64,000 nt of DNA from Methanobacteriota archaeon (GCA_020696385.1 JAEHCQ010000001.1:352001-416000); one strand, 5' to 3'. Positions 19,777-30,055 are shown, counted from the first letter of the stretch. A program made the numbers and translations. Notes: generated by a model from the sequence alone, not told the origin.

Positions 19777-21960
19777 TCACTTTACCTTCGAGCCTGGTTC
19801 CATATCCTTATCTGGAACTATGCCAGAGGTTTCTGTTCTCAGGAGAAGCTCGGAGCCATCACTGATTATGACTGCTTTATTATCCTCTCCTATTCTAAGG
19901 ATGAACTTCTGAAACTCTGGGAAGCTTATCATCTTCTCGCCATTGGCTCCCAATATCCTGTCACCAGGTTTTGCATCACCATCCGGCATCAATATGGATA
20001 CCTTTTCCTCATCACTTGCGGCCAGGAGCATGCACTGTGATTCAATTCCTCTCAGCTTTGCTGGCTTCAGATTACAGACAACCGTGATGACCTTCCCCTC
20101 CAGCTCTTCCTTGGAGTAGTGTTCTTTGAGGCCAGCCACCAATTGTCTTTCTTCATCTCCAAGGTCGATTATCATGACAATGAGCTTGTCCGCATCCGGG
20201 TGGTCATGGACCTCGGCGATCCTTCCAATTCTCAGATCCAGCTTCTTCAATTCATCTGCTGGATTCACGGTCTCTGGTTCTGGCTCTGCCGGTGTCTCAA
20301 TATCATTGGTCATATCAATTTCCTCCAGTTTTTTGAACAGTGGCTCTGGCTTTTCAAGCTCCACTCCCGATATCGGGGGCTCCATGGTCTGTTCCCACTT
20401 TGCCTCAAGGACCTCTCCTTCCTCACCAAGGGATTCCCACAGTCTCTGGGATGAGAAGGGCATGAAGGGTGCCATGATGACAGCCAGTGCTTTTGATATT
20501 CTTAGTGAAGTGTGAAGTGTTATGGCACATTTGTCCCTATCCTGTTTCAACTCCGCCCATGGTGCTTTCGTGTCAATGTACTGGTTGCCATAACGTGCCA
20601 GTTCCATCGCTCGCTTGATAGCTCTCTTGAACTCGCATTTGTCCAGGTGCTCGGCAACATCATGGGCCACTTTTTTGATCTCCTCGATCGCTTCATTGTC
20701 AGGGATACCCAATAAACCAGGCCTTTCAGGTATTTGGCCAAAGTTCTTCTGCGTGAAGCTCAGGGTCCTGTGAACGAAGTTCCCATAGGTCGCCACAAGT
20801 TCGTTATTGTTCCTCGTCCTGAAATCATCCCATGTGAAATCAGTGTCTCGGTTCTCAGGCATGATGGAGGTCATGTAATACCTCATGGCATCCGGGTCAT
20901 ATTGATCCAAGATGTCCTTTATCGAGAATGACACCCCGCGGGATTTGGAGAATTGCTGGCCCTCGAACCTCAAGAGAGCATTGCCTGGAACATCATAGGG
21001 TAGATTGAGCTCTCGATCAAAGGAGCGGAGAACTGCTGGCCAAAATATTGTGTGAAATGGGATATTGTCCTTTCCGAGGAAGTAATAATGACGGCATTCC
21101 GGGTTCTTCCAGAAGCTGTCAAGCTTTTGTTGATCGACCTGGCCATTCTCATCCATCGCCCATTTGACAGCCATCGTGTAATAGCCCATAAAAGCCTCAA
21201 ACCAGACATAGATGCGCTTATCATCGTGCCCGTCAAAAGGAATTTTGATACCATAGGTGGTGTCGCGGGTGACTGGCCTGTCTTTTAATCCGCCTTCTAT
21301 GAACATTCTGGAGAAATTGAGAACATGAGGTCGCCAGTAGTCCTTATCTGACATCCATTCCTTCAGTTCTTGCTCAAGGGCACTCAGCTTGAAGAAGAAA
21401 TGACTGCGTGTCACGAACTTCGGCTCCGAGCCACAGGTCGTGCATCTGAGAGATATCAGCATATCAGGATCCATCAGCTTTCCGCATTCCTCGCACTGAT
21501 CTCCCCTAGCATTCTCAAAATGGCAAAAGGGGCATTCGCCCTCCACATATCTATCTGGCAGGGTCCGGTCGCATTCGCCGCAATAGGGAAGTTCCATCTC
21601 TTTCTCATATAGATAGCCATTCTCGTGAATGGTCTTGAACAAATGGCTGACAGTTTCAATATGAACTGGATCCTCGGTACTGTGGAATTCGTCGAACTCT
21701 ATCCCGAAGTCCTTGAGAGCCTTGTCATTCATGGTGTGGTATTTCTGGGCTAGTTCCTCTGGCTTGATGCCCTCCTTCTCGGCTCCGACCGTGACTGGGG
21801 TACCGTGCATGTCCGAGCCAGACACCATCAGGACCTCATTACCTCTCATGATGTGGAACTTGCGGAATATGTCTGGGGGAAGATTGCATCCTGCCATGTG
21901 GCCAACATGAATAGGCCCATTTGCATAGGGCCAGGCCACTCCAATGAATATCTTGTCCAT
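19777..21960 (-). CDS. metG: Methionine--tRNA ligase with C-terminal tRNA-binding OB domain
   Basis: PYANGPIHVGH, Zn knuckles, GKDNIPFH, QFSKSRG, DLRIG...HPDADKL. Confidence 0.98.
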   Translation of the reverse strand: MDKIFIGVAWPYANGPIHVGHMAGCNLPPDIFRKFHIMRGNEVLMVSGSDMHGTPVTVGAEKEGIKPEELAQKYHTMNDKALKDFGIEFDEFHSTEDPVHIETVSHLFKTIHENGYLYEKEMELPYCGECDRTLPDRYVEGECPFCHFENARGDQCEECGKLMDPDMLISLRCTTCGSEPKFVTRSHFFFKLSALEQELKEWMSDKDYWRPHVLNFSRMFIEGGLKDRPVTRDTTYGIKIPFDGHDDKRIYVWFEAFMGYYTMAVKWAMDENGQVDQQKLDSFWKNPECRHYYFLGKDNIPFHTIFWPAVLRSFDRELNLPYDVPGNALLRFEGQQFSKSRGVSFSIKDILDQYDPDAMRYYMTSIMPENRDTDFTWDDFRTRNNNELVATYGNFVHRTLSFTQKNFGQIPERPGLLGIPDNEAIEEIKKVAHDVAEHLDKCEFKRAIKRAMELARYGNQYIDTKAPWAELKQDRDKCAITLHTSLRISKALAVIMAPFMPFSSQRLWESLGEEGEVLEAKWEQTMEPPISGVELEKPEPLFKKLEEIDMTNDIETPAEPEPETVNPADELKKLDLRIGRIAEVHDHPDADKLIVMIIDLGDEERQLVAGLKEHYSKEELEGKVITVVCNLKPAKLRGIESQCMLLAASDEEKVSILMPDGDAKPGDRILGANGEKMISFPEFQKFILRIGEDNKAVIISDGSELLLRTETSGIVPDKDMEPGSKVK

Positions 21961-22037
21961 TCTAAGCACCTCTGATTATACAGGCTGATACAGATATAGG
22001 ATTTATAATTTTATGAGTATAGAAAGTCTTTGATTTG

Positions 22038-22292: not shown

Positions 22293-22452
22293 ATACTGTG
22301 CGATTGATTACTTATTGTGGGAACGTGGAAGACCTACAAACATGACATTATATAAAAATTTAGCAGGATACATATCCAAAATGAGTATTTATTGGATTCA
22401 ATTTAATATTAGGGAGCTATCATTTATATCGGTAAAGTGCATTTCCTCCAGT

Positions 22453-23478
22453 ATGGTAGAAGGGGAAGGGCCAATTCCCATAATATCAGCCAGTGATCTG
22501 GAAAAATATGGATACTGTCCATTGAGCTGGTGGTTGAGCATTGGCCTGTCGAATGATAACGAGGAAGATAAAAAAAGAGTTCTGGCAACAGGCACAGAGA
22601 AGCACAAGAGCCTGAGCAAGGACCTCAATAGTATCCTGGAGGGCGAGAGCATGGCGAAGGAATCCGAGACAACGGTCCTATGGTTCGCCATAGCGGCCAC
22701 TCTGATATGCCTGGTGGGACTTTCTCTGGTATTCAAGGCAGACCTTAATATTGGACTTATAATGGGCGTGATCGCCCTTATATGGATCCTGGCGGCATGC
22801 TATTTCCTTTATCTCGCAGAGACCATATCACAGAAAAAGACCAAGATGATCTATCAGAGGATCATTCTCATCTTCGCCATTGTGGGGGCCATAATAGGCG
22901 TGAATTCCCTCACAGTTCTGGAGCGATATTTCAGCCCGGAAGGAGCTGAGATCTTACTTGCACTTTCTCTTGTCTGGCTAATTGCCGCTTCTTATTTCCT
23001 GTACAGATCGCTAAAACATGTGCACGGAGCCATGAAAAAGAGACATCTGAGGAAGGTGAAGGAACAGATAGCGTATGTGGATACTGATGATAAAAAACCG
23101 AAATTATTCATATCCAAGAAACTTGGGTTGAGTGGCAGGCCAGACTATGTACTTCTGATCGATGATGGGCATATACCTGTCGAGGTCAAGACCGGTCGCA
23201 CACCACGCGGTCCGCTTTTCTCCCACATAATGCAAACAGCGGCCTACTGTATCCTGATAGATGAGGAATATGGCGAGGCTCCTCCTTATGGTATCCTGAG
23301 ATATGAAACAGCCGAGCACGAGATAGAGTATGATGATTCTCTCAAGGATCTGGTCATAACAAAACTTGAAGAGATGAGGAATATATTTATATCAAAGGAA
23401 GTGCACAGGAATCACAATAAGCCAGGCAAATGCAGGAATTGTTCAAGAAGAGCAATATGCCAGGAAAGGTTGGATTAG
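22453..23478 (+). CDS. Stand-alone Cas4-like PD-(D/E)xK nuclease with four inserted TM helices
   Basis: ISASDLEKYGYCP, LSGRPDY, PVEVKTG, QTAAY, KCRNCSRRAIC; four hydrophobic helices between YCP and the catalytic core. Confidence 0.88.
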   Translation: MVEGEGPIPIISASDLEKYGYCPLSWWLSIGLSNDNEEDKKRVLATGTEKHKSLSKDLNSILEGESMAKESETTVLWFAIAATLICLVGLSLVFKADLNIGLIMGVIALIWILAACYFLYLAETISQKKTKMIYQRIILIFAIVGAIIGVNSLTVLERYFSPEGAEILLALSLVWLIAASYFLYRSLKHVHGAMKKRHLRKVKEQIAYVDTDDKKPKLFISKKLGLSGRPDYVLLIDDGHIPVEVKTGRTPRGPLFSHIMQTAAYCILIDEEYGEAPPYGILRYETAEHEIEYDDSLKDLVITKLEEMRNIFISKEVHRNHNKPGKCRNCSRRAICQERLD

Positions 23479-23583: not shown

Positions 23584-23925
23584 CTATTTGATGTCCTGTT
23601 CATAATTGAGACCGCTGAGAAGAGCGATTTCCGCCTTTTGGATCTCCCTTCCAAGGTAGGCCGCATGCTCCATTCTTGAGACCAGATTCTCTCTGACTAT
23701 GGTATGACAAAGAGCTTCAGCATTCCTTCCACATACCGTGGCCATGAGCTTTCCAGTATCGGTCTTCTTGGAATCCTTACCCTTGGAGACATTCTCATAG
23801 AACTCGACAACTATCTCCTTTCTTGATTTATCTATGAATATTACAAAGAATCCTTTTGGATCCAGTGTCAGGCGCACATCCTTCTCTGCTTCTATTGGCT
23901 CTATGTCCATATTGAGGTCCTCCAT
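23584..23925 (-). CDS. DUF4346 domain protein
   Basis: LDPKGFFVI...HAAYLGREIQKAEIAL...YEQD. Confidence 0.88.
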   Translation of the reverse strand: MEDLNMDIEPIEAEKDVRLTLDPKGFFVIFIDKSRKEIVVEFYENVSKGKDSKKTDTGKLMATVCGRNAEALCHTIVRENLVSRMEHAAYLGREIQKAEIALLSGLNYEQDIK

Positions 23926-24896
23926 TATTCCAGCTCCTTTTCCACTTGATCTCTGGCCTCGACCATGTTTTTCAGTTTCTGGCAGGCGACCTTTTGATCA
24001 AGGTTCCTCAATCCGCAATCAGGATCGAGTAAGAGCTTGTCCTCACTAAATAGGTCGAGCCCCTTTAAAATCCTTTCTTTGATTTTATTGACAGGCTCTG
24101 CTTCGTTCACATCGGATCGAACACATCCAAATCCCAGCTTCTGAGGGAAATCAAATCCAGCCACAAAATTATCCAATCCAGTATGCGCCGCGAACTCATG
24201 ATCAAGAATATCAACCTTGATCTCAATGAGGTCTTCGAACAGGGGCTGGATGTCACCACATACATGAAGGGCTTTGTACACATTCGTGTTCTTCAGAATT
24301 ATCTCGACCAGGTCCTTGCCGTATTCAGGCCGATCTATCGAGAAGAAGGGCTCGTCCACCTGTATGACATCGACGATGTCCGAGATGGCTTCCACTTCTT
24401 TTGAAAAAGCCTCCGCGATATCAAAGGCCAGGTTTTCCACATTCCCATAATGCTCATCCACGCAGGAGCGTGCCATCGTATACGCTCCAGTTATGATGCC
24501 CTTGATCTTCACATTGTCTCCAATAAGACCTCTCGCATACAGGAGATCGTCTTTGGTTATCGGGGAATTGAATGATATATCGCCAATGACCACTGGCCGA
24601 GTCTTCATCCTTATTCCATTCAGCTTCGAGGCGAAGAGAGTGACCATGTCATTCCGGGTCTGTCCATCCGATATGATGTCTATGCCAGCATCCAGCTGGG
24701 CCTGTACAGATCGTTCTAAACTTATTTTGAATGGATCTGGATCAATAGATGTATCCAGATCATTGGGTGATCCTTTCATAGATGTGATACGCCCCACATC
24801 AATGTTGTATGACCTTTCGAAATCCCGACCCAGAGGTCTGGCCGGGAAGCTTCCGACGACCGTGGTCGTCAATCTACGTCCGCTCACTTCACTCAC
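23925..24896 (-). CDS. Core (single-domain MetE-like, MesA-type) methionine synthase
   Basis: TTVVGSFP, ISDGQTR, IQVDEP, Zn ligands HVC/E/PDCG; no N-terminal folate-binding half; GTGA overlap with mtrH. Confidence 0.9.
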   Translation of the reverse strand: MSEVSGRRLTTTVVGSFPARPLGRDFERSYNIDVGRITSMKGSPNDLDTSIDPDPFKISLERSVQAQLDAGIDIISDGQTRNDMVTLFASKLNGIRMKTRPVVIGDISFNSPITKDDLLYARGLIGDNVKIKGIITGAYTMARSCVDEHYGNVENLAFDIAEAFSKEVEAISDIVDVIQVDEPFFSIDRPEYGKDLVEIILKNTNVYKALHVCGDIQPLFEDLIEIKVDILDHEFAAHTGLDNFVAGFDFPQKLGFGCVRSDVNEAEPVNKIKERILKGLDLFSEDKLLLDPDCGLRNLDQKVACQKLKNMVEARDQVEKELE

Positions 24897-25822
24897 TTCA
24901 ATCTCCTCTTTGGATGGTTCTCGGGGATCTCGATGCCGAAATAATCCTCTCCGCCTTCCGCGATGAACTTGTCCACCATAGCGATGAAGGGGAATATCTG
25001 GCCAGCATTCCTCATCGGGCCATATACACAATAGTCAGCCCCCATCATAACGGGGAGAGCATTCGCTCCGACATCGCAAGTCAAGTATGCCTCGCGATGT
25101 GTCTTTCTGTAATCTTTCATCCAGAGCCATGATTCCACGGTGTTATGGATCGCGCATCCTGCTGGCAATCCCCACTTGTTCTTCATCACGGGGATCGACC
25201 TGATGGTCTCCGCAGTATTATGGTCAAAAGGAGTTGCTCCAGTATCGATTATCATGTTTGGGATATTGGCTTCCTTCGCAATATCCAGAAGGCCTTGATC
25301 CAAAAGGCCAGCACCATTTTCCAGTATCTCCATCCTGCCATCGGTGCTCATGTTCTTCGGATTGTAGCCCAGCACGATGGCACAACCTGGTGGGTTCGCT
25401 GCCAGTGCTTCTTTCTCCATCTCTTCCAATCCCAGATTCAGTGAATTGTAGATAAGCCTCTTTGAGACTCCGATCTCTCCAGCATGGTCCAGTACCTTCG
25501 CCCGTAGTTCGCTTTCAGGAACATCCACGCATATCGGTCTGTTCTCCGGAACCCGGTCAAGAACAAAGCTCAATCGGGTCTCTATCTGCTCCTCCGACCC
25601 GATGAATATATCGCATATTCCTGGATTGCCAGTCATTTGACTTAGCTCTTCCTGGGTGGCGATAAAGCCATCTATTTCCTCCATGGCTTCCGGTGAATGA
25701 TCTATGTATTTCTTTCCGTAAAATACGGTCCCGAACAGTACGGTGGGCGATTCCCCAGGTTGTCCGCCCATGCTCATATCGCCTATTTTTATCTTAATTT
25801 GCTCTTTTGAAAAGTTCAACAT
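24893..25822 (-). CDS. mtrH: MtrH/MtxH-family methyl-pterin:corrinoid methyltransferase
   Basis: FSKEQ...GGQPGESPTVLFGTVFY, IYNS, GLPAGCAIHN, GADYCVYGP. Confidence 0.93.
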   Translation of the reverse strand: MLNFSKEQIKIKIGDMSMGGQPGESPTVLFGTVFYGKKYIDHSPEAMEEIDGFIATQEELSQMTGNPGICDIFIGSEEQIETRLSFVLDRVPENRPICVDVPESELRAKVLDHAGEIGVSKRLIYNSLNLGLEEMEKEALAANPPGCAIVLGYNPKNMSTDGRMEILENGAGLLDQGLLDIAKEANIPNMIIDTGATPFDHNTAETIRSIPVMKNKWGLPAGCAIHNTVESWLWMKDYRKTHREAYLTCDVGANALPVMMGADYCVYGPMRNAGQIFPFIAMVDKFIAEGGEDYFGIEIPENHPKRRLK

Positions 25823-25823
25823 A

Positions 25824-26411
25824 TTAACTCTCCTCCACAGGCATTTGCTCAAGCTCGAGGAAGGGATCCAGTATCAGGTCCTTGTGGAATCCTATCTTGC
25901 CAGTTAATCGCTTTACAGACGGTCTGTCGCCATTCTTATTGTCCACAAGCTCCACGATATAAGGCTCACCAAATGGCTCATGATCGATCGCCAGTTGTTC
26001 CTCCACGACCTTCATGATCTCGACCTTATCGGTTATGTCGATCATATTGACGATCTCTATCTGCTGGCGAAAGCGTTCGATCGCCTCTTCATCAATGTTC
26101 TCGATGAAGGGAACCGCGCCCTTCGCGCCAGATATCCTTCCATTGTCATCAATACCCTTGCTGTGAAGTGATAGAAGGCTGTGGCCAGACCTATGGCCGC
26201 GTACTTCTTCACCACAGAGTATTAGAATTCGAATATTCGGATTGGAGATGACATTCGCCACAACCTTCTCAATACCCAGGTTCTCGGTCTTCATGTGACC
26301 CCATATCGCGACTTTCTCTTCGGGAAAGTCAATGATACTGGCCAGTGTGACTATCGAAACTGAACTATTGGGATTTCCAATTGTGTATTCTCCTCTCCAT
26401 GGGTACATCAT
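25824..26411 (-). CDS. mtrA: Soluble MtrA/MtxA-family corrinoid protein
   Basis: KTENLGIEKVVANVISNPNIR, EVRGHRSG cobalt-ligand His, GAVPFIEN; no C-terminal TM anchor. Confidence 0.93.
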   Translation of the reverse strand: MMYPWRGEYTIGNPNSSVSIVTLASIIDFPEEKVAIWGHMKTENLGIEKVVANVISNPNIRILILCGEEVRGHRSGHSLLSLHSKGIDDNGRISGAKGAVPFIENIDEEAIERFRQQIEIVNMIDITDKVEIMKVVEEQLAIDHEPFGEPYIVELVDNKNGDRPSVKRLTGKIGFHKDLILDPFLELEQMPVEES

Positions 26412-26893: not shown

Positions 26894-29800
26894 TTAGCTT
26901 TGTTTATAAACTTTTTTAATGTTCTTGGCCAGTCTTTCACTGATGCCCTTGACCTCGAGCAATTCAGCTTCAGATGCCTTTTCCAGATCCTTGAAAGATG
27001 TGAATCCAGCATCGTATATGGCCTCTGATTTGGAGAAGCCAACACCGGGTACGCCAACCAGAGCGTTGATGATCTCCTTCTTCTTTTCCTCCGGAGTCTT
27101 GGCCTTTGGCTTTCCTTTCTTATCGTGCTTGATGTCCGTGATGTCCTTGACATCCGTGGTGTCCTTGACATCCAGTATGTCTTCCAATTCCTCTATCACG
27201 GCATCTTCCTTCTCTTCTTCGGTGAACTTGGTTCCGCATTTGTCACAGAACTTGTCATCGATATTACCGATAGCGTCGCACGATGGACATCGGAATTGCT
27301 CACCGGCTATCATATCATCTTCGATATCCTCCGCAAGCTCAATTTCTGTTCTGTCCATCTCTGGCTCGTGAGTTTTTGCTTCCTCTTCCTTCTCACCCTG
27401 TGCTCCAAGTTTTCTTACAGCGGCATCCCGATTCTTGATCGCATCTCTGAAGCCAGGTTCTATTCCAAGTGCCCTTTCGAAGCATTCCAGAGCGAAGGAA
27501 TGCTCCTCCATCCTTGATAGTGCTATTCCTTTATTGTTCCAAGCTTCCGGATGTTCCGGATCGAGCTTAATAGCCTTATCCAGAACTTTTATCGCCTTGT
27601 CCAGCCTATCATCACTTATCAGAACGAAGCCTTTATTGGACAATAACAATGCAGTTTCATTTATGTTCAATGCCATGTCAAGGCATGATACGGATTCCCT
27701 GAACCTGTCCATCTCGTACAGAGCGGCGGCCTTATTGGCCCACGCATCACCATTGGCCTGATCTATGTCAATGGCCCTATCAAAATATTTTATGGAATCT
27801 TCTGGCTTGCCAGAGGCCAGAATGGCATTACCCTTATTGCACCAGGCTTCTGAGAAATCCGGGTCGATCTGTATAGCGCGGTCGAAGCAGAGGATGGAGT
27901 CGTCATGCTTTCCGATACTGAGTAAAGCAGCACCTTCCGCATTCCATACCTCGGATGCTCCGGGCTCAAGCTCGATAGCCCTATCAAAGCTCTCGATAGC
28001 CCCCTGGGTGTCTCCAAGGTTCATGTAGATATTTCCCCTTTCTATCCAAAGTACTGGCTCTTCTTCCTCCAGCCCTATGAGCACATCATTGGCCTTCAGG
28101 GCATCTTCGAATTCCCCGATCTCGATCAATGATGTTGATCGATTCATGAGGGCGGAAATATTATCGGGCTCCTTCTTGAGGACCAGGTCGAAATATTCAA
28201 TGGCATCATCAAATCTTCCCATCAAGTACAGTAAATTGGCTTTTTCCAGGTATGTGGATGAGCGTTCTTCCAATTCGATGGATTGATTCAGACAATCCAG
28301 TGCTTCATCATACTTCATCAGTCTTATGAGCATTTTAGACTTCTCAAAGAGAACAGCCTCTTCTCTCATCTCGTCTTCCAGAGCCAGTTTTTCCTCCACC
28401 TGTTCAAGTTCAGGTGGATCACCTACTGGCAATTCGGATTCAGGTAATGGAACCTTATCCTCCACTCCCAAACCACATTTGGAGCAGAAGGCTGCTTCTG
28501 CCGCAAGAGGTTCGGCACAGGCGGAACAAGCGGAGCCTGTTCCGACACCCATAAGATCGGCGAAGTCATCGGTAAGTGATGCCTCGCTGACAGTTGGCTT
28601 CTTACTTTCAATAGCAGCAAGCCTGGCCTTTTCCTCTTCTTTTTCCCGGGAATCCTTTTCCTCATCCGCGAGCCTCTTTTCTTCTTCTTCCAGCTTCAGT
28701 TCTTCTTCGGCCTTTTGTTTCTCTGCTTCTTCCCTCGCCCTTTTTTCTTCCTCTTCTATCAGGCGTAATCTCTCTTCTTCAGCCTCTCTTTCCCTTCTCT
28801 CTTCTTCTTCAATGAGACGGGTCTCATCGATTTCCTTCAGGGCTTCTTCAGCCTTTTTCTTTTCCTCAATGGCCAGGTCCCAATAGGGCTTTAGAAGTAG
28901 GGAATTATCAAAGGCATCGATGGCCCTTCTTGGGTCGCCATTTGCCATCTGTGCAATTCCCTTTTGATAGTAAACCTCGGGGCTTTTCTCAATGCCCAGT
29001 ACTTTGTCATAAGATATGATGCTCTGCTCATACTGCTCCATATCATGCAGTAATAGTCCTCGATTCAGCCAGGCTTCCTTGTAATCTGCCTTTTTGGCTA
29101 TGGCTCTATCGAAGGAATCCAGGGCATTACCATGATCCTTCATATATTTGAGTGCCACACCCTTATTGTTGAGAACATTGATATTGTCTGGCTCAAGGTA
29201 CAATACCTTATTGTAACATAGCACGGCTTCCTCATGTTTTCCCTGCTCGTGCAATGTCGCACCTTTATTATTCCAGGCCTTGGTGAAGTTCTTGTTTATC
29301 TTCAATGCCTGGTCATAGCACTGGATCTCATCATCATACCTTTGAAGATCGTAATAAATCGCTCCAAGATTATACCATGATTCCTCACTATCTGGATTCA
29401 CTTCCAGAGCTTTTTTGAAGCATTCGGCAGCTTCATCCAGTCGCTTCATGGCCTTCAGAACATTGCCTTTCATTATCCAGGCAAGGTCGTAGTTCGGCTT
29501 CATCTTCAAAGCATTATCATAATATTCGATGGCTTTCTTGAAATTACCCGAATTGAAGAAATCATTACCCCAGCCCATTTGGTTCTCCAGTTCGTCAATA
29601 CTTGGAAGGAATCTTTCTCCATCCAGCTCAAGTACCTTTTTCGAGTCCTGTTTCTTGAGGTCATCATCAAGTTCCAGTTCCTTGATAAGTAGCCCGAACT
29701 TGTCACCATCTGCAATGTTAACTCCAAGCAGATCGGCATACTTCCTCGCGTCCTTGGAGAGCTTGGTCGTGGATATGAAGATGGCCTTTACATCCATGCC

Positions 29801-30055
29801 ATCTCTCTTTCGCCCGACCAGTTTCTGAATATCCTCCGGGCCAGCATCTGAATGGCCACGCTTTAATTTTATCACGAAGGGCTCGGAATTACCTTCCACC
29901 TCCCTTAGTGCTTCTATCTCCACATCATCAGCCCGCATGCGGGAGCTGGTTACCTTGAAATCCATCTTCTCCAGCAATCTATTGGATAGTATGCGGAACT
30001 CCTCAGGATCAAGGTCATTCACTATGTTCATGAGATATTCCTGGCTCATACTCAT
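26894..30055 (-). CDS. Large TPR protein with N-terminal Mrr-like domain, coiled coil, two Zn ribbons and C-terminal HhH
   Basis: LDPEEF...LLEKMDF...AIFISTT...IADGDKF Mrr-like pattern; many WxNKG TPRs; CSAC/CSKC and CPSC/CDKC; VPGVGFSK and VKGISE HhH. Confidence 0.88.
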   Translation of the reverse strand: MSMSQEYLMNIVNDLDPEEFRILSNRLLEKMDFKVTSSRMRADDVEIEALREVEGNSEPFVIKLKRGHSDAGPEDIQKLVGRKRDGMDVKAIFISTTKLSKDARKYADLLGVNIADGDKFGLLIKELELDDDLKKQDSKKVLELDGERFLPSIDELENQMGWGNDFFNSGNFKKAIEYYDNALKMKPNYDLAWIMKGNVLKAMKRLDEAAECFKKALEVNPDSEESWYNLGAIYYDLQRYDDEIQCYDQALKINKNFTKAWNNKGATLHEQGKHEEAVLCYNKVLYLEPDNINVLNNKGVALKYMKDHGNALDSFDRAIAKKADYKEAWLNRGLLLHDMEQYEQSIISYDKVLGIEKSPEVYYQKGIAQMANGDPRRAIDAFDNSLLLKPYWDLAIEEKKKAEEALKEIDETRLIEEEERREREAEEERLRLIEEEEKRAREEAEKQKAEEELKLEEEEKRLADEEKDSREKEEEKARLAAIESKKPTVSEASLTDDFADLMGVGTGSACSACAEPLAAEAAFCSKCGLGVEDKVPLPESELPVGDPPELEQVEEKLALEDEMREEAVLFEKSKMLIRLMKYDEALDCLNQSIELEERSSTYLEKANLLYLMGRFDDAIEYFDLVLKKEPDNISALMNRSTSLIEIGEFEDALKANDVLIGLEEEEPVLWIERGNIYMNLGDTQGAIESFDRAIELEPGASEVWNAEGAALLSIGKHDDSILCFDRAIQIDPDFSEAWCNKGNAILASGKPEDSIKYFDRAIDIDQANGDAWANKAAALYEMDRFRESVSCLDMALNINETALLLSNKGFVLISDDRLDKAIKVLDKAIKLDPEHPEAWNNKGIALSRMEEHSFALECFERALGIEPGFRDAIKNRDAAVRKLGAQGEKEEEAKTHEPEMDRTEIELAEDIEDDMIAGEQFRCPSCDAIGNIDDKFCDKCGTKFTEEEKEDAVIEELEDILDVKDTTDVKDITDIKHDKKGKPKAKTPEEKKKEIINALVGVPGVGFSKSEAIYDAGFTSFKDLEKASEAELLEVKGISERLAKNIKKVYKQS
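27135..27173. repeat. 18-bp tandem repeat in coding sequence
   Basis: TCCGTG(A/G)TGTCCTTGACA x2 encoding DVKD(T/I)T. Confidence 0.7.

Follow-up and report, generated by a model that had tools for sequence, protein, structure and literature searches.

What are mtrA and mtrH doing in an archaeon that is not a methanogen? The question is raised by a stretch of 64 000 nt from a Methanobacteriota archaeon (GCA_020696385.1, JAEHCQ010000001.1:352001-416000), referred to here, at its full length, as the window, in which these two genes are followed by one for a core MetE of the MesA type and by one for a protein of the DUF4346 family. Their function matters because mtrAH is often taken as a remnant of, or a marker for, methane metabolism; in the relevant passages of 10.1101/2020.03.09.984617, PMC9635834 and PMC4632066, the role of these genes in non-methanogens is left unknown or unclear. 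A preliminary description of the window had proposed that the four genes form a self-contained, split methionine synthase assembled from methanogenesis parts. The analysis reported here bears out the core of that proposal: the four-gene linkage is conserved, no other methionine synthase can be recognised in the host, and the operon probably encodes a multi-subunit, cobamide-dependent methionine synthase that would perform the MetH reaction using unrelated proteins.

Four tightly coupled genes for soluble proteins

The four open reading frames (ORFs) run consecutively on the minus strand, from position 26411 to position 23584 of the window, in the order mtrA-mtrH-mesA-DUF4346 (Table 1) and with the coordinates given in the preliminary description. 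Their tight coupling was read from the sequence exactly as had been claimed: a single nucleotide separates the stop codon of mtrA from the start codon of mtrH (TAA-t-ATG), the GTG start of mesA lies over the TGA stop of mtrH (GTGA), and mesA and the DUF4346 gene share a TAATG overlap. Translation of mesA may instead start at another GTG, in frame and 9 nt further downstream; this codon lies 5 nt past the mtrH stop and would leave no overlap. A hydropathy scan detected no hydrophobic segment in any of the four proteins.

Table 1. Position in the window of the genes of the operon and of three neighbouring genes.
Gene	Position	Strand	Product and proposed role	Family match
mtrA-like	25824..26411	-	195 aa; soluble corrinoid protein, proposed methyl carrier	PF04208, E 1.4e-54
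mtrH	24893..25822	-	309 aa; proposed MtrA-cobamide methylation from methyl-tetrahydrofolate	PF02007, E 1.4e-77
mesA-like core MetE	23925..24896	-	323 aa from GTG; proposed methyl-cobamide:homocysteine methyltransferase	PF01717, E 5.3e-41
DUF4346	23584..23925	-	113 aa; small soluble protein	PF14251, E 3e-27
Upstream neighbour	26894..30055	-	1053 aa; highly acidic protein	
Downstream neighbour	22315..23478	+	387 aa; C-terminal PD-(D/E)XK / Cas4-like nuclease domain	PF12705, 5.4e-13; PF01930, 1.3e-08
Methionyl-tRNA synthetase	19777..21969	-	methionyl-tRNA synthetase with C-terminal tRNA-binding domain	Pfam

When the MtrA of the window was compared with TIGR01111 (238 positions), only 15-177 were matched, the canonical C-terminal third being missing; the C-terminus of the protein is acidic and its maximum 19-residue hydropathy is 1.18. 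In an alignment with PDB chain 5laa_A (E 1.4e-45), its His73 falls on residue 84 and its Glu43 on residue 54, which the passages of Wagner et al. (PMC4915002) on this point name as the cobalt ligand of MtrA (His84) and its hydrogen-bond partner (Glu54). Both residues are invariant in 32 orthologues. The claim of an anchorless MtrA that keeps its cobalt-binding His was therefore upheld. None of mtrB-G lies beside the operon in the window, as had also been stated, and MtrE has no match in the genome either; with this, and with no C-terminal transmembrane helix, MtrA does not qualify as a subunit of the membrane-bound MtrA-H complex.

MtrH scored 261.3 bits against PF02007 and 279.5 bits against TIGR01114 (cutoff, 271.4). 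PF01717 (Meth_synt_2) was the sole Pfam match of MesA, which scored 273.9 bits against the 'methionine synthase' equivalog NF002119 (cutoff, 258). All 35 orthologues compared keep its zinc-motif residues H211, C213, E234 and C294, which align to HMC, E and PDCGL of Thermotoga maritima MetE, in agreement with the H-x-C...E...C zinc site set out in passages of PMC7005905; a single-domain, zinc-binding MetE core is what the preliminary description had recognised here. The last protein exceeded the gathering cutoff of PF14251 (95.7 bits against 29.6).

Conservation of the linkage

Linkage was followed from MtrA and from MesA. With an MtrA alignment as the query and one genome per species, 62 loci were obtained, 54 of which were informative. 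The order mtrA-mtrH-mesA-DUF4346, all on the same strand, was found in 45 of these 54, and protein identity to the window across the MtrA loci went down to ∼40%; eight of the 62 loci end at a contig edge after a consistent gene prefix. When metagenomes were searched with a MesA alignment, 80 loci were kept. Among the 24 closest (39-54% identity), 23 had mtrH, mtrA and/or DUF4346 as neighbours within the limits of the contig, the sole unlinked one being a contig of 1236 nt, whereas none of the 56 more distant loci (35-40% identity) was linked within the fetched flanks. The four-gene linkage, on which the preliminary description had staked its proposal, is thus conserved in both searches.

A quick maximum-likelihood tree (IQ-TREE) was built from 97 distinct MesA rows, after partial or split hits and eight duplicates had been dropped. 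One branch, with a Shimodaira-Hasegawa-like approximate likelihood ratio test (SH-aLRT) value of 97, split the 67 linked from the 30 unlinked rows. The rows from genome loci were ascertained via MtrA, and the unbiased comparison is the split of 24 against 56 metagenome loci given above. Linked and unlinked MesA proteins are 35-40% identical. Against NF002119, five unlinked MesA proteins scored 316-401 bits and three linked ones 265-268 bits, compared with 273.9 for that of the window. On the split in the tree, together with these lower scores, the operon-linked proteins are a sister subfamily of methanogen-type MesA. The unlinked proteins with the highest NF002119 scores, used as a proxy for Methanothermobacter MesA, were 35-40% identical to the window protein, at or under the ∼40% that marks membership of MesA.

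A fifth gene was found when the host's own methylenetetrahydrofolate reductase (MTHFR) was used as a query on the locus sequences. An MTHFR-like gene lies upstream of mtrA on the same strand, ending 15-132 nt before it, in 35 of the 54 informative genome loci and in 9 of the 15 informative metagenome loci (eight MtrA-anchored loci had too little upstream sequence to be informative for metF). All nine of the upstream genes tested were above the Pfam MTHFR cutoff (71.8-106.2 bits against 24). The operon of this large subclade is metF-mtrA-mtrH-mesA-DUF4346. That of the window has no metF, its mtrA being preceded instead by a large tetratricopeptide repeat (TPR) protein.

Six of the 45 complete loci have further genes inserted between mtrH and mesA. 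These were considered as extra partners and rejected, as their translations are unrelated; by eye they encode membrane proteins, response regulators, a tyrosyl-tRNA synthetase-like protein and a PIN/AbrB-like pair. In two loci, genes for response-regulator/GAF-like giants of 969 and 1136 aa occur between mtrA and mtrH (L023, 1543-4452; L029, 6620-10030). Both loci retain metF upstream, and neither has mesA within the fetched sequence.

Methionine synthases and one-carbon metabolism in the host and its relatives

The genome of the host (2.28 Mb in 50 contigs, 94.5% complete) contains a single MtrA, a single MtrH, a single Meth_synt_2 protein and a single DUF4346 protein, every one of them encoded inside the operon. 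The check for metH, full-length metE, mcr and mtrE that the preliminary description had called for was made in this genome: the homocysteine domain of MetH (PF02574), the N-terminal half of MetE (PF08267), McrA and MtrE had no match, and neither did Mch or CdhD. With no match for McrA, MtrE or Mch at this level of completeness, the host was taken as a non-methanogen. It has a MetF-type MTHFR (encoded on another contig), FolD, two genes for serine hydroxymethyltransferase (SHMT) and S-adenosylhomocysteine (SAH) hydrolase. Its one-carbon cycle is thus of the folate type, and the host, a non-methanogen, has neither a Wood-Ljungdahl corrinoid protein nor any methionine synthase that can be recognised besides that of the operon. 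Three further proteins with a B12-binding domain are encoded in the genome. One of 214 aa was considered as an alternative methyl donor and rejected, since its gene is flanked by ABC-transporter genes and not by genes for methyltransferases. Judged by protein and by record title, the closest relatives are uncultured Thermoplasmata/Thermoplasmatota, namely SG8-5 'Proteinoplasmatales', Saliniplasma, Natronoplasma, Halarchaeoplasma and metagenome-assembled genomes (MAGs) labelled Methanomassiliicoccales. MAGs with the labels Aenigmarchaeota and Undinarchaeota, outside Thermoplasmatota, were also among the matches.

In a sample of 301 genomes of the phylum, each at least 80% complete, MtrA was present in 55 and a MesA-like gene (NF002119, E ≤ 1e-40) in 49. 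Both occurred together in 46 genomes, to which G083, with a split mesA, was added to give 47 carriers. In 40 of the 46, mtrA and mesA lie at most 4 kb apart on one contig. Of the six in which they do not, four were assigned: G193 and G232 have contig breaks within the operon, G223 was judged from coordinates only to be cut by contig ends, and G090 is weighed below. The other two, G010 and G021, are assemblies of 460 and 520 contigs. No carrier had a MetH-sized PF02574 ORF, the two matches obtained being ORFs of 410 and 308 aa, and none had a separate gene for Meth_synt_1 (PF08267), as the five sub-cutoff matches sit inside mesA. MTHFR was found in 43 of the 47.

A probable route from methyl-folate to methionine

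The gene identities and catalytic residues, the conserved linkage and the lack of a match for any alternative synthase are all direct observations, and they are consistent with the idea that the operon encodes a cobamide-dependent methionine synthase, which we regard as probable. A MetF-type reductase, encoded in the host by the metF on another contig, would produce 5-methyl-tetrahydrofolate. MtrH, a pterin-binding TIM barrel, would move the methyl group from methyl-tetrahydrofolate (methyl-H4F) to the Co(I) cobamide carried by soluble MtrA. In MesA, zinc-activated homocysteine would then take the methyl group from methyl-Co(III)-MtrA, yielding methionine and regenerating Co(I). DUF4346 would be a conserved accessory subunit, most likely docking on, or tethering, the corrinoid protein and its barrel partner. 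From genomic context we infer each of the transfer steps, which pterin takes part, which way the flux runs and whatever role DUF4346 may have.

Two lines of earlier work bear on these steps. That MtrH methylates the corrinoid of MtrA in methanogens is stated in passages of PMC4632066 and PMC7005905. Core MetE proteins from both archaea and bacteria accept methylcobalamin as a methyl donor in vitro, with a high Km (passages of PMC7005905 and PMC7857596), and this high Km is the reason given there for expecting the donor to be a corrinoid protein.

The MetH-analogue route put forward in the preliminary description is strongly supported in its core by the linkage, the lack of a rival synthase, the non-methanogenic nature of the host and the metF that joins the operon in most relatives. 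The corrinoid cap or reactivation adaptor suggested there for DUF4346 stays a candidate role, what is shown being its linkage and fusions. What does not stand is the term 'self-contained', an overstatement: in this host the system needs metF from another contig, an imported cobamide and a route of reductive reactivation.

Several observations weigh against this proposal. Nine of the 54 informative MtrA loci deviate despite having room for the missing genes: three lack DUF4346 only, four have mtrA and mtrH without mesA, and two have mtrA alone. In genome G090 the genes are truly separated into a metF-mtrA-mtrH group and a mesA-DUF4346 group. Most operon-linked MesA proteins fall below the NF002119 cutoff, which is passed in only 6 of the 301 genomes. 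By its NCBIfam scores, MtrH is nearer to the tetrahydromethanopterin (H4MPT)-dependent type (TIGR01114) than to the H4F-dependent MtgA (146.2 bits), so that folate as the identity of the donor is read from context. That context, made up of MetF, FolD and SHMT, no match for Mch in the host, and metF in the operon of its relatives, indicates that the pterin is probably folate.

Further points against it concern the supply of cofactor and substrate. CobS had no match in any of four genomes of the genus, and the cobamide would consequently need to be imported complete. Neither a RamA/RACo-type reductive activator nor a MetH activation module, either of which might rescue Co(II), was found in the host genome. 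The archaeal HcyBio family (PF01837), which serves de novo homocysteine formation, also had no match in any of the four genomes, and the pathway may serve recycling in the methyl cycle rather than de novo synthesis. In addition, passages of PMC9123169 describe relatives of the host lineage as protein degraders, and such organisms could be methionine auxotrophs.

DUF4346 as a candidate docking subunit

Of the 48 loci in which mtrA-mtrH-mesA is present and the contig leaves space for a further gene, 45 have DUF4346 after mesA, and in G090 it stays beside mesA though mtrAH sits elsewhere. Among 89 longer homologues, fusions of MtrA with DUF4346 (277-282 aa) make up the four nearest, at 50-53% identity, and 78 are proteins of 327-568 aa, many of them from methanogens, in which Pterin_bind (PF00809) is combined with DUF4346. 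Both types of fusion preserve the helix motif EHAAYLG.ELQKAE almost intact. Such fusions, to MtrA on the one hand and to pterin barrels on the other, favour a docking or tethering role for DUF4346 between the corrinoid protein and a barrel partner. The name currently used in Pfam, 'PterinBD-DUF4346', may reflect only the co-occurrence with pterin-binding domains. Members of the family were also found in cyanobacteria, Sulfolobus and methanogens, which served as controls of the genome search.

Among solved structures, DUF4346 has no convincing match. Its AlphaFold2 (AF2) model, a confident one (mean predicted local distance difference test, pLDDT, of 86.3), has three strands and two helices. 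A Foldseek search of the PDB with this model returned nothing at E ≤ 0.001 (the best E, 0.18, was with ribosomal proteins), VIA-align gave a best Z of 6.3 (ribosomal and EVH1/PH-like folds), which is under the tool's noise guide of 7-8, and a profile search of the PDB sequences yielded no matches at E ≤ 1. The best score in the ESM Atlas, 0.77, was uninformative. Prediction of a complex of MtrA, MtrH and DUF4346, run without controls, scored 0.25 and 0.11 where the mark was 0.32, which counts neither for nor against an interaction. When the N-terminal domain of P0149, a dihydropteroate synthase (DHPS)-like protein with DUF4346, was compared with MtrA and MtrH by hhalign, the probability obtained was 0.2%, a value that is uninformative when it comes from a single sequence. 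Neither DUF4346 nor TIGR00284/MJ0107 is mentioned in the full-text literature searched, subscription journals lying outside its reach.

One of the four MtrA-DUF4346 fusions (P0121-P0124) comes from a MAG labelled Aenigmarchaeota. P0121 and P0123 retain the Gly-His motif of the cobalt ligand, and in them DUF4346 occupies the place of the acidic C-terminal tail of free MtrA. This tail, at residues ∼170-195 of the window protein (25827-25905), contains in soluble MtrA proteins a conserved H-K-D-L-x-L-D-P-F/Y that resembles L-D-P-K-G-F-F in the first-strand region of DUF4346, at the N-terminus of the latter (window ∼23850-23870). This likeness may be fortuitous, or it may point to a pairing of strands between MtrA and DUF4346.

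A more ambitious reading would make metF-mtrA-mtrH-mesA-DUF4346 a complete alternative to MetH, with DUF4346 as an essential fourth subunit that, by docking or capping, holds the corrinoid protein to its barrel partners and perhaps protects or reactivates Co(I) without a RamA- or S-adenosylmethionine (SAM)-type activator. We consider this version rather unlikely. By extension, the widespread DHPS-like proteins with DUF4346 of methanogens would be pterin:corrinoid methyltransferases, and methanogen MesA would likewise be methylated from MtrA, which would settle a question about its physiological donor that has been open since 1999.

Alternative explanations

The direction of flux might be the reverse of that proposed, the operon then encoding a catabolic demethylase in which the methyl group of a methylated sulfur compound, be it an osmolyte of the sulfonium or thioether kind or a derivative of methionine, would pass through the MesA-like protein, MtrA and MtrH to H4F, with MetF and FolD oxidising it for energy or one-carbon units. 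A substrate methyltransferase, a corrinoid protein and a pterin methyltransferase are indeed the components of three-component demethylases, and the presence of metF in the operon is compatible with flux in either direction. MtgA, a member of the MtrH family which the MtrH of the window matched at the score given above, bears the name methyl-Co:tetrahydrofolate methyltransferase in NCBIfam, and a distant relationship links MetE-type barrels to methylcobalamin:coenzyme M (CoM) methyltransferase (4ay7, E 2.3e-5). Many of the carriers, moreover, are by their record titles MAGs from hypersaline or soda-lake environments, habitats that are rich in methylated osmolytes.

On balance, catabolic demethylation is nonetheless improbable. 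The MesA-like protein lies above the cutoff of an equivalog for methionine synthase, NF002119, and the motifs it shares with MetE around the homocysteine and zinc site (TTVVGS, DEP, HxC and DPDCG) are invariant. No methionine synthase besides this one was found in the carriers, although SAH hydrolase is present in the host. Demethylation of a thioether such as methionine is chemically unfavourable. Finally, demethylases of this kind usually carry a RamA-type activator; none was matched in the host genome, whereas a distant mtrAH pair in the same phylum does have a RamA-like neighbour.

It could also be supposed that MesA is independent of cobalamin, in the manner of a split MetE, or uses another donor, and that MtrA and MtrH have an unrelated job, such as methyl-H4F:CoM transfer or feeding the Wood-Ljungdahl pathway, their adjacency to mesA being regulatory or historical. 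Between MesA and the catalytic half of split MetE the identity is ∼38% (Price et al., PMC7857596, in the passage on that enzyme), the tandem halves of the split MetE of genome G020 reach 239 and 177 bits against NF002119, overlapping the scores of linked MesA, the host has another small protein with a B12-binding domain, and methyl-H4F:CoM transfer and Wood-Ljungdahl funnelling are the proposals published for orphan mtrAH (passages of 10.1101/2020.03.09.984617 and PMC9635834). This is very unlikely all the same, as no N-terminal half of MetE was found in the host, nor a separate one in the 47 carriers, CdhD, McrA and MtrE had no match in the host, the other B12-binding protein is encoded among ABC-transporter genes, and a translational coupling and gene order kept down to ∼40% identity would be difficult to account for if the genes did not share a function.

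Relation to known systems

A cobamide-dependent methionine synthase assembled from MtrH, MtrA and MesA, the reading preferred here, has partial counterparts in several known systems. One is MesA of Methanothermobacter, which, in the passages of PMC7857596 that describe it, is likewise a single Meth_synt_2 barrel of ∼300 aa without a folate-binding N-terminal half and with the same zinc motif, and has the corrinoid protein MtrA as its predicted donor too. Those passages place MesA in methanogens only, whereas the host of the window is a non-methanogen. The proposed partner differs as well: in place of the membrane Mtr complex it is a soluble MtrA dedicated to the task and accompanied by MtrH, DUF4346 and often MetF. 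In addition, the operon-linked MesA proteins form a separate clade.

With MetH, the operon would share its chemistry and its modular logic, in which a pterin-binding barrel passes the methyl group to a cobamide carrier and this to a barrel with zinc and homocysteine. None of PF02574, PF00809, PF02310 or the activation domain of MetH is present in the four proteins of the window, however; their modules are MtrH, MtrA and a MetE-type barrel on separate polypeptides, and no SAM-dependent activation domain was identified in them. The MtrA fold also binds cobalamin in a mode unlike that of MetH, according to passages of PMC4915002. Compared with the MtrA-H complex of methanogens, MtrA and MtrH are clear homologues and the first half-reaction would be the same in kind, but the MtrA of the window has no anchor and is not accompanied by mtrB-G, and the proposed acceptor is homocysteine, via MesA, and not coenzyme M.

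The orphan mtrA of group IV and mtrH of subgroup III in Wang et al. 2015 (PMC4632066), and the mtrAH of SG8-5 and environmental Methanomassiliicoccales in the preprint of Zinke et al. 2020, are the same genes as those examined here; the passages of these papers on orphan mtrAH do not name mesA, DUF4346 or metF as neighbours. The DHPS-like (Pterin_bind) proteins with DUF4346 of methanogens (TIGR00284) contain the same DUF4346, with a near-identical EHAAYLG.ELQKAE, but as the C-terminal domain of a barrel protein of 490-570 aa, while in the operon it is a free-standing protein of 113 aa.

Transfer from MtrA to MesA is not a wholly new idea. It was predicted earlier for methanogens (passages of PMC7857596), the adjacency of MesA and MtrA 'in a few genomes' was noted by Price & Arkin 2024 (PMC11378808), and a corrinoid protein as donor was suggested by Schröder and Thauer, as recounted in a passage of PMC7005905. 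Neither the mtrA-mtrH-mesA-DUF4346 operon nor its version with metF is described in the full-text literature searched, which excluded supplements and subscription journals (Table S3 of PMC4632066 may list neighbours). What is new is a soluble, operon-encoded candidate MetH analogue of non-methanogens with MtrH, DUF4346 and often MetF. It gives the 'orphan' mtrAH of non-methanogenic Thermoplasmatota a concrete function that can be tested, shows how an organism with MetF but with no MetH, MetE or Wood-Ljungdahl pathway could still make use of methyl-folate, and provides DUF4346 with a genomic context. As all five proteins are soluble, reconstitution is expected to be much easier than with the membrane Mtr complex.

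Other clusters in the phylum and neighbours of the operon

In the eight genomes of the sample with MtrA only, the mtrAH pair is a more distant one (30-45% identity), with MtrA ORFs of 258-289 aa. These pairs, without mesA or DUF4346, occur in families f8, f10 and f2 of the same class (L148-L154, L163 and L164). At L148 (6543-10715, G113:C2), the only such locus with its ORFs listed, two genes on the opposite strand come after the pair, one metallo-beta-lactamase-like and one for a 549-aa protein that, by eye, resembles the corrinoid activator RamA in its ASKHA-like N-terminus and its C-terminal clusters of Cys. The distant mtrAH pair with its RamA-like neighbour looks like a separate corrinoid methyltransferase system. 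In G020, coordinates place an MTHFR match, a PF02574 homocysteine-methyltransferase match and two tandem genes for MetE halves together (C17:6662-10411), in what looks like a different methionine cluster, of the split-MetE type.

In the window, the acidic protein encoded directly upstream of the operon has, by eye, many TPR-like repeats, a Glu/Lys-rich centre and Cys-x2-Cys pairs. The plus-strand gene that follows the operon encodes a Cas4-like protein in which several mid-protein hydrophobic stretches were seen by eye, an unusual feature for a Cas4-like nuclease. Beyond this one gene, on the same strand as the operon and 1.6 kb downstream of it, lies the gene for methionyl-tRNA synthetase.

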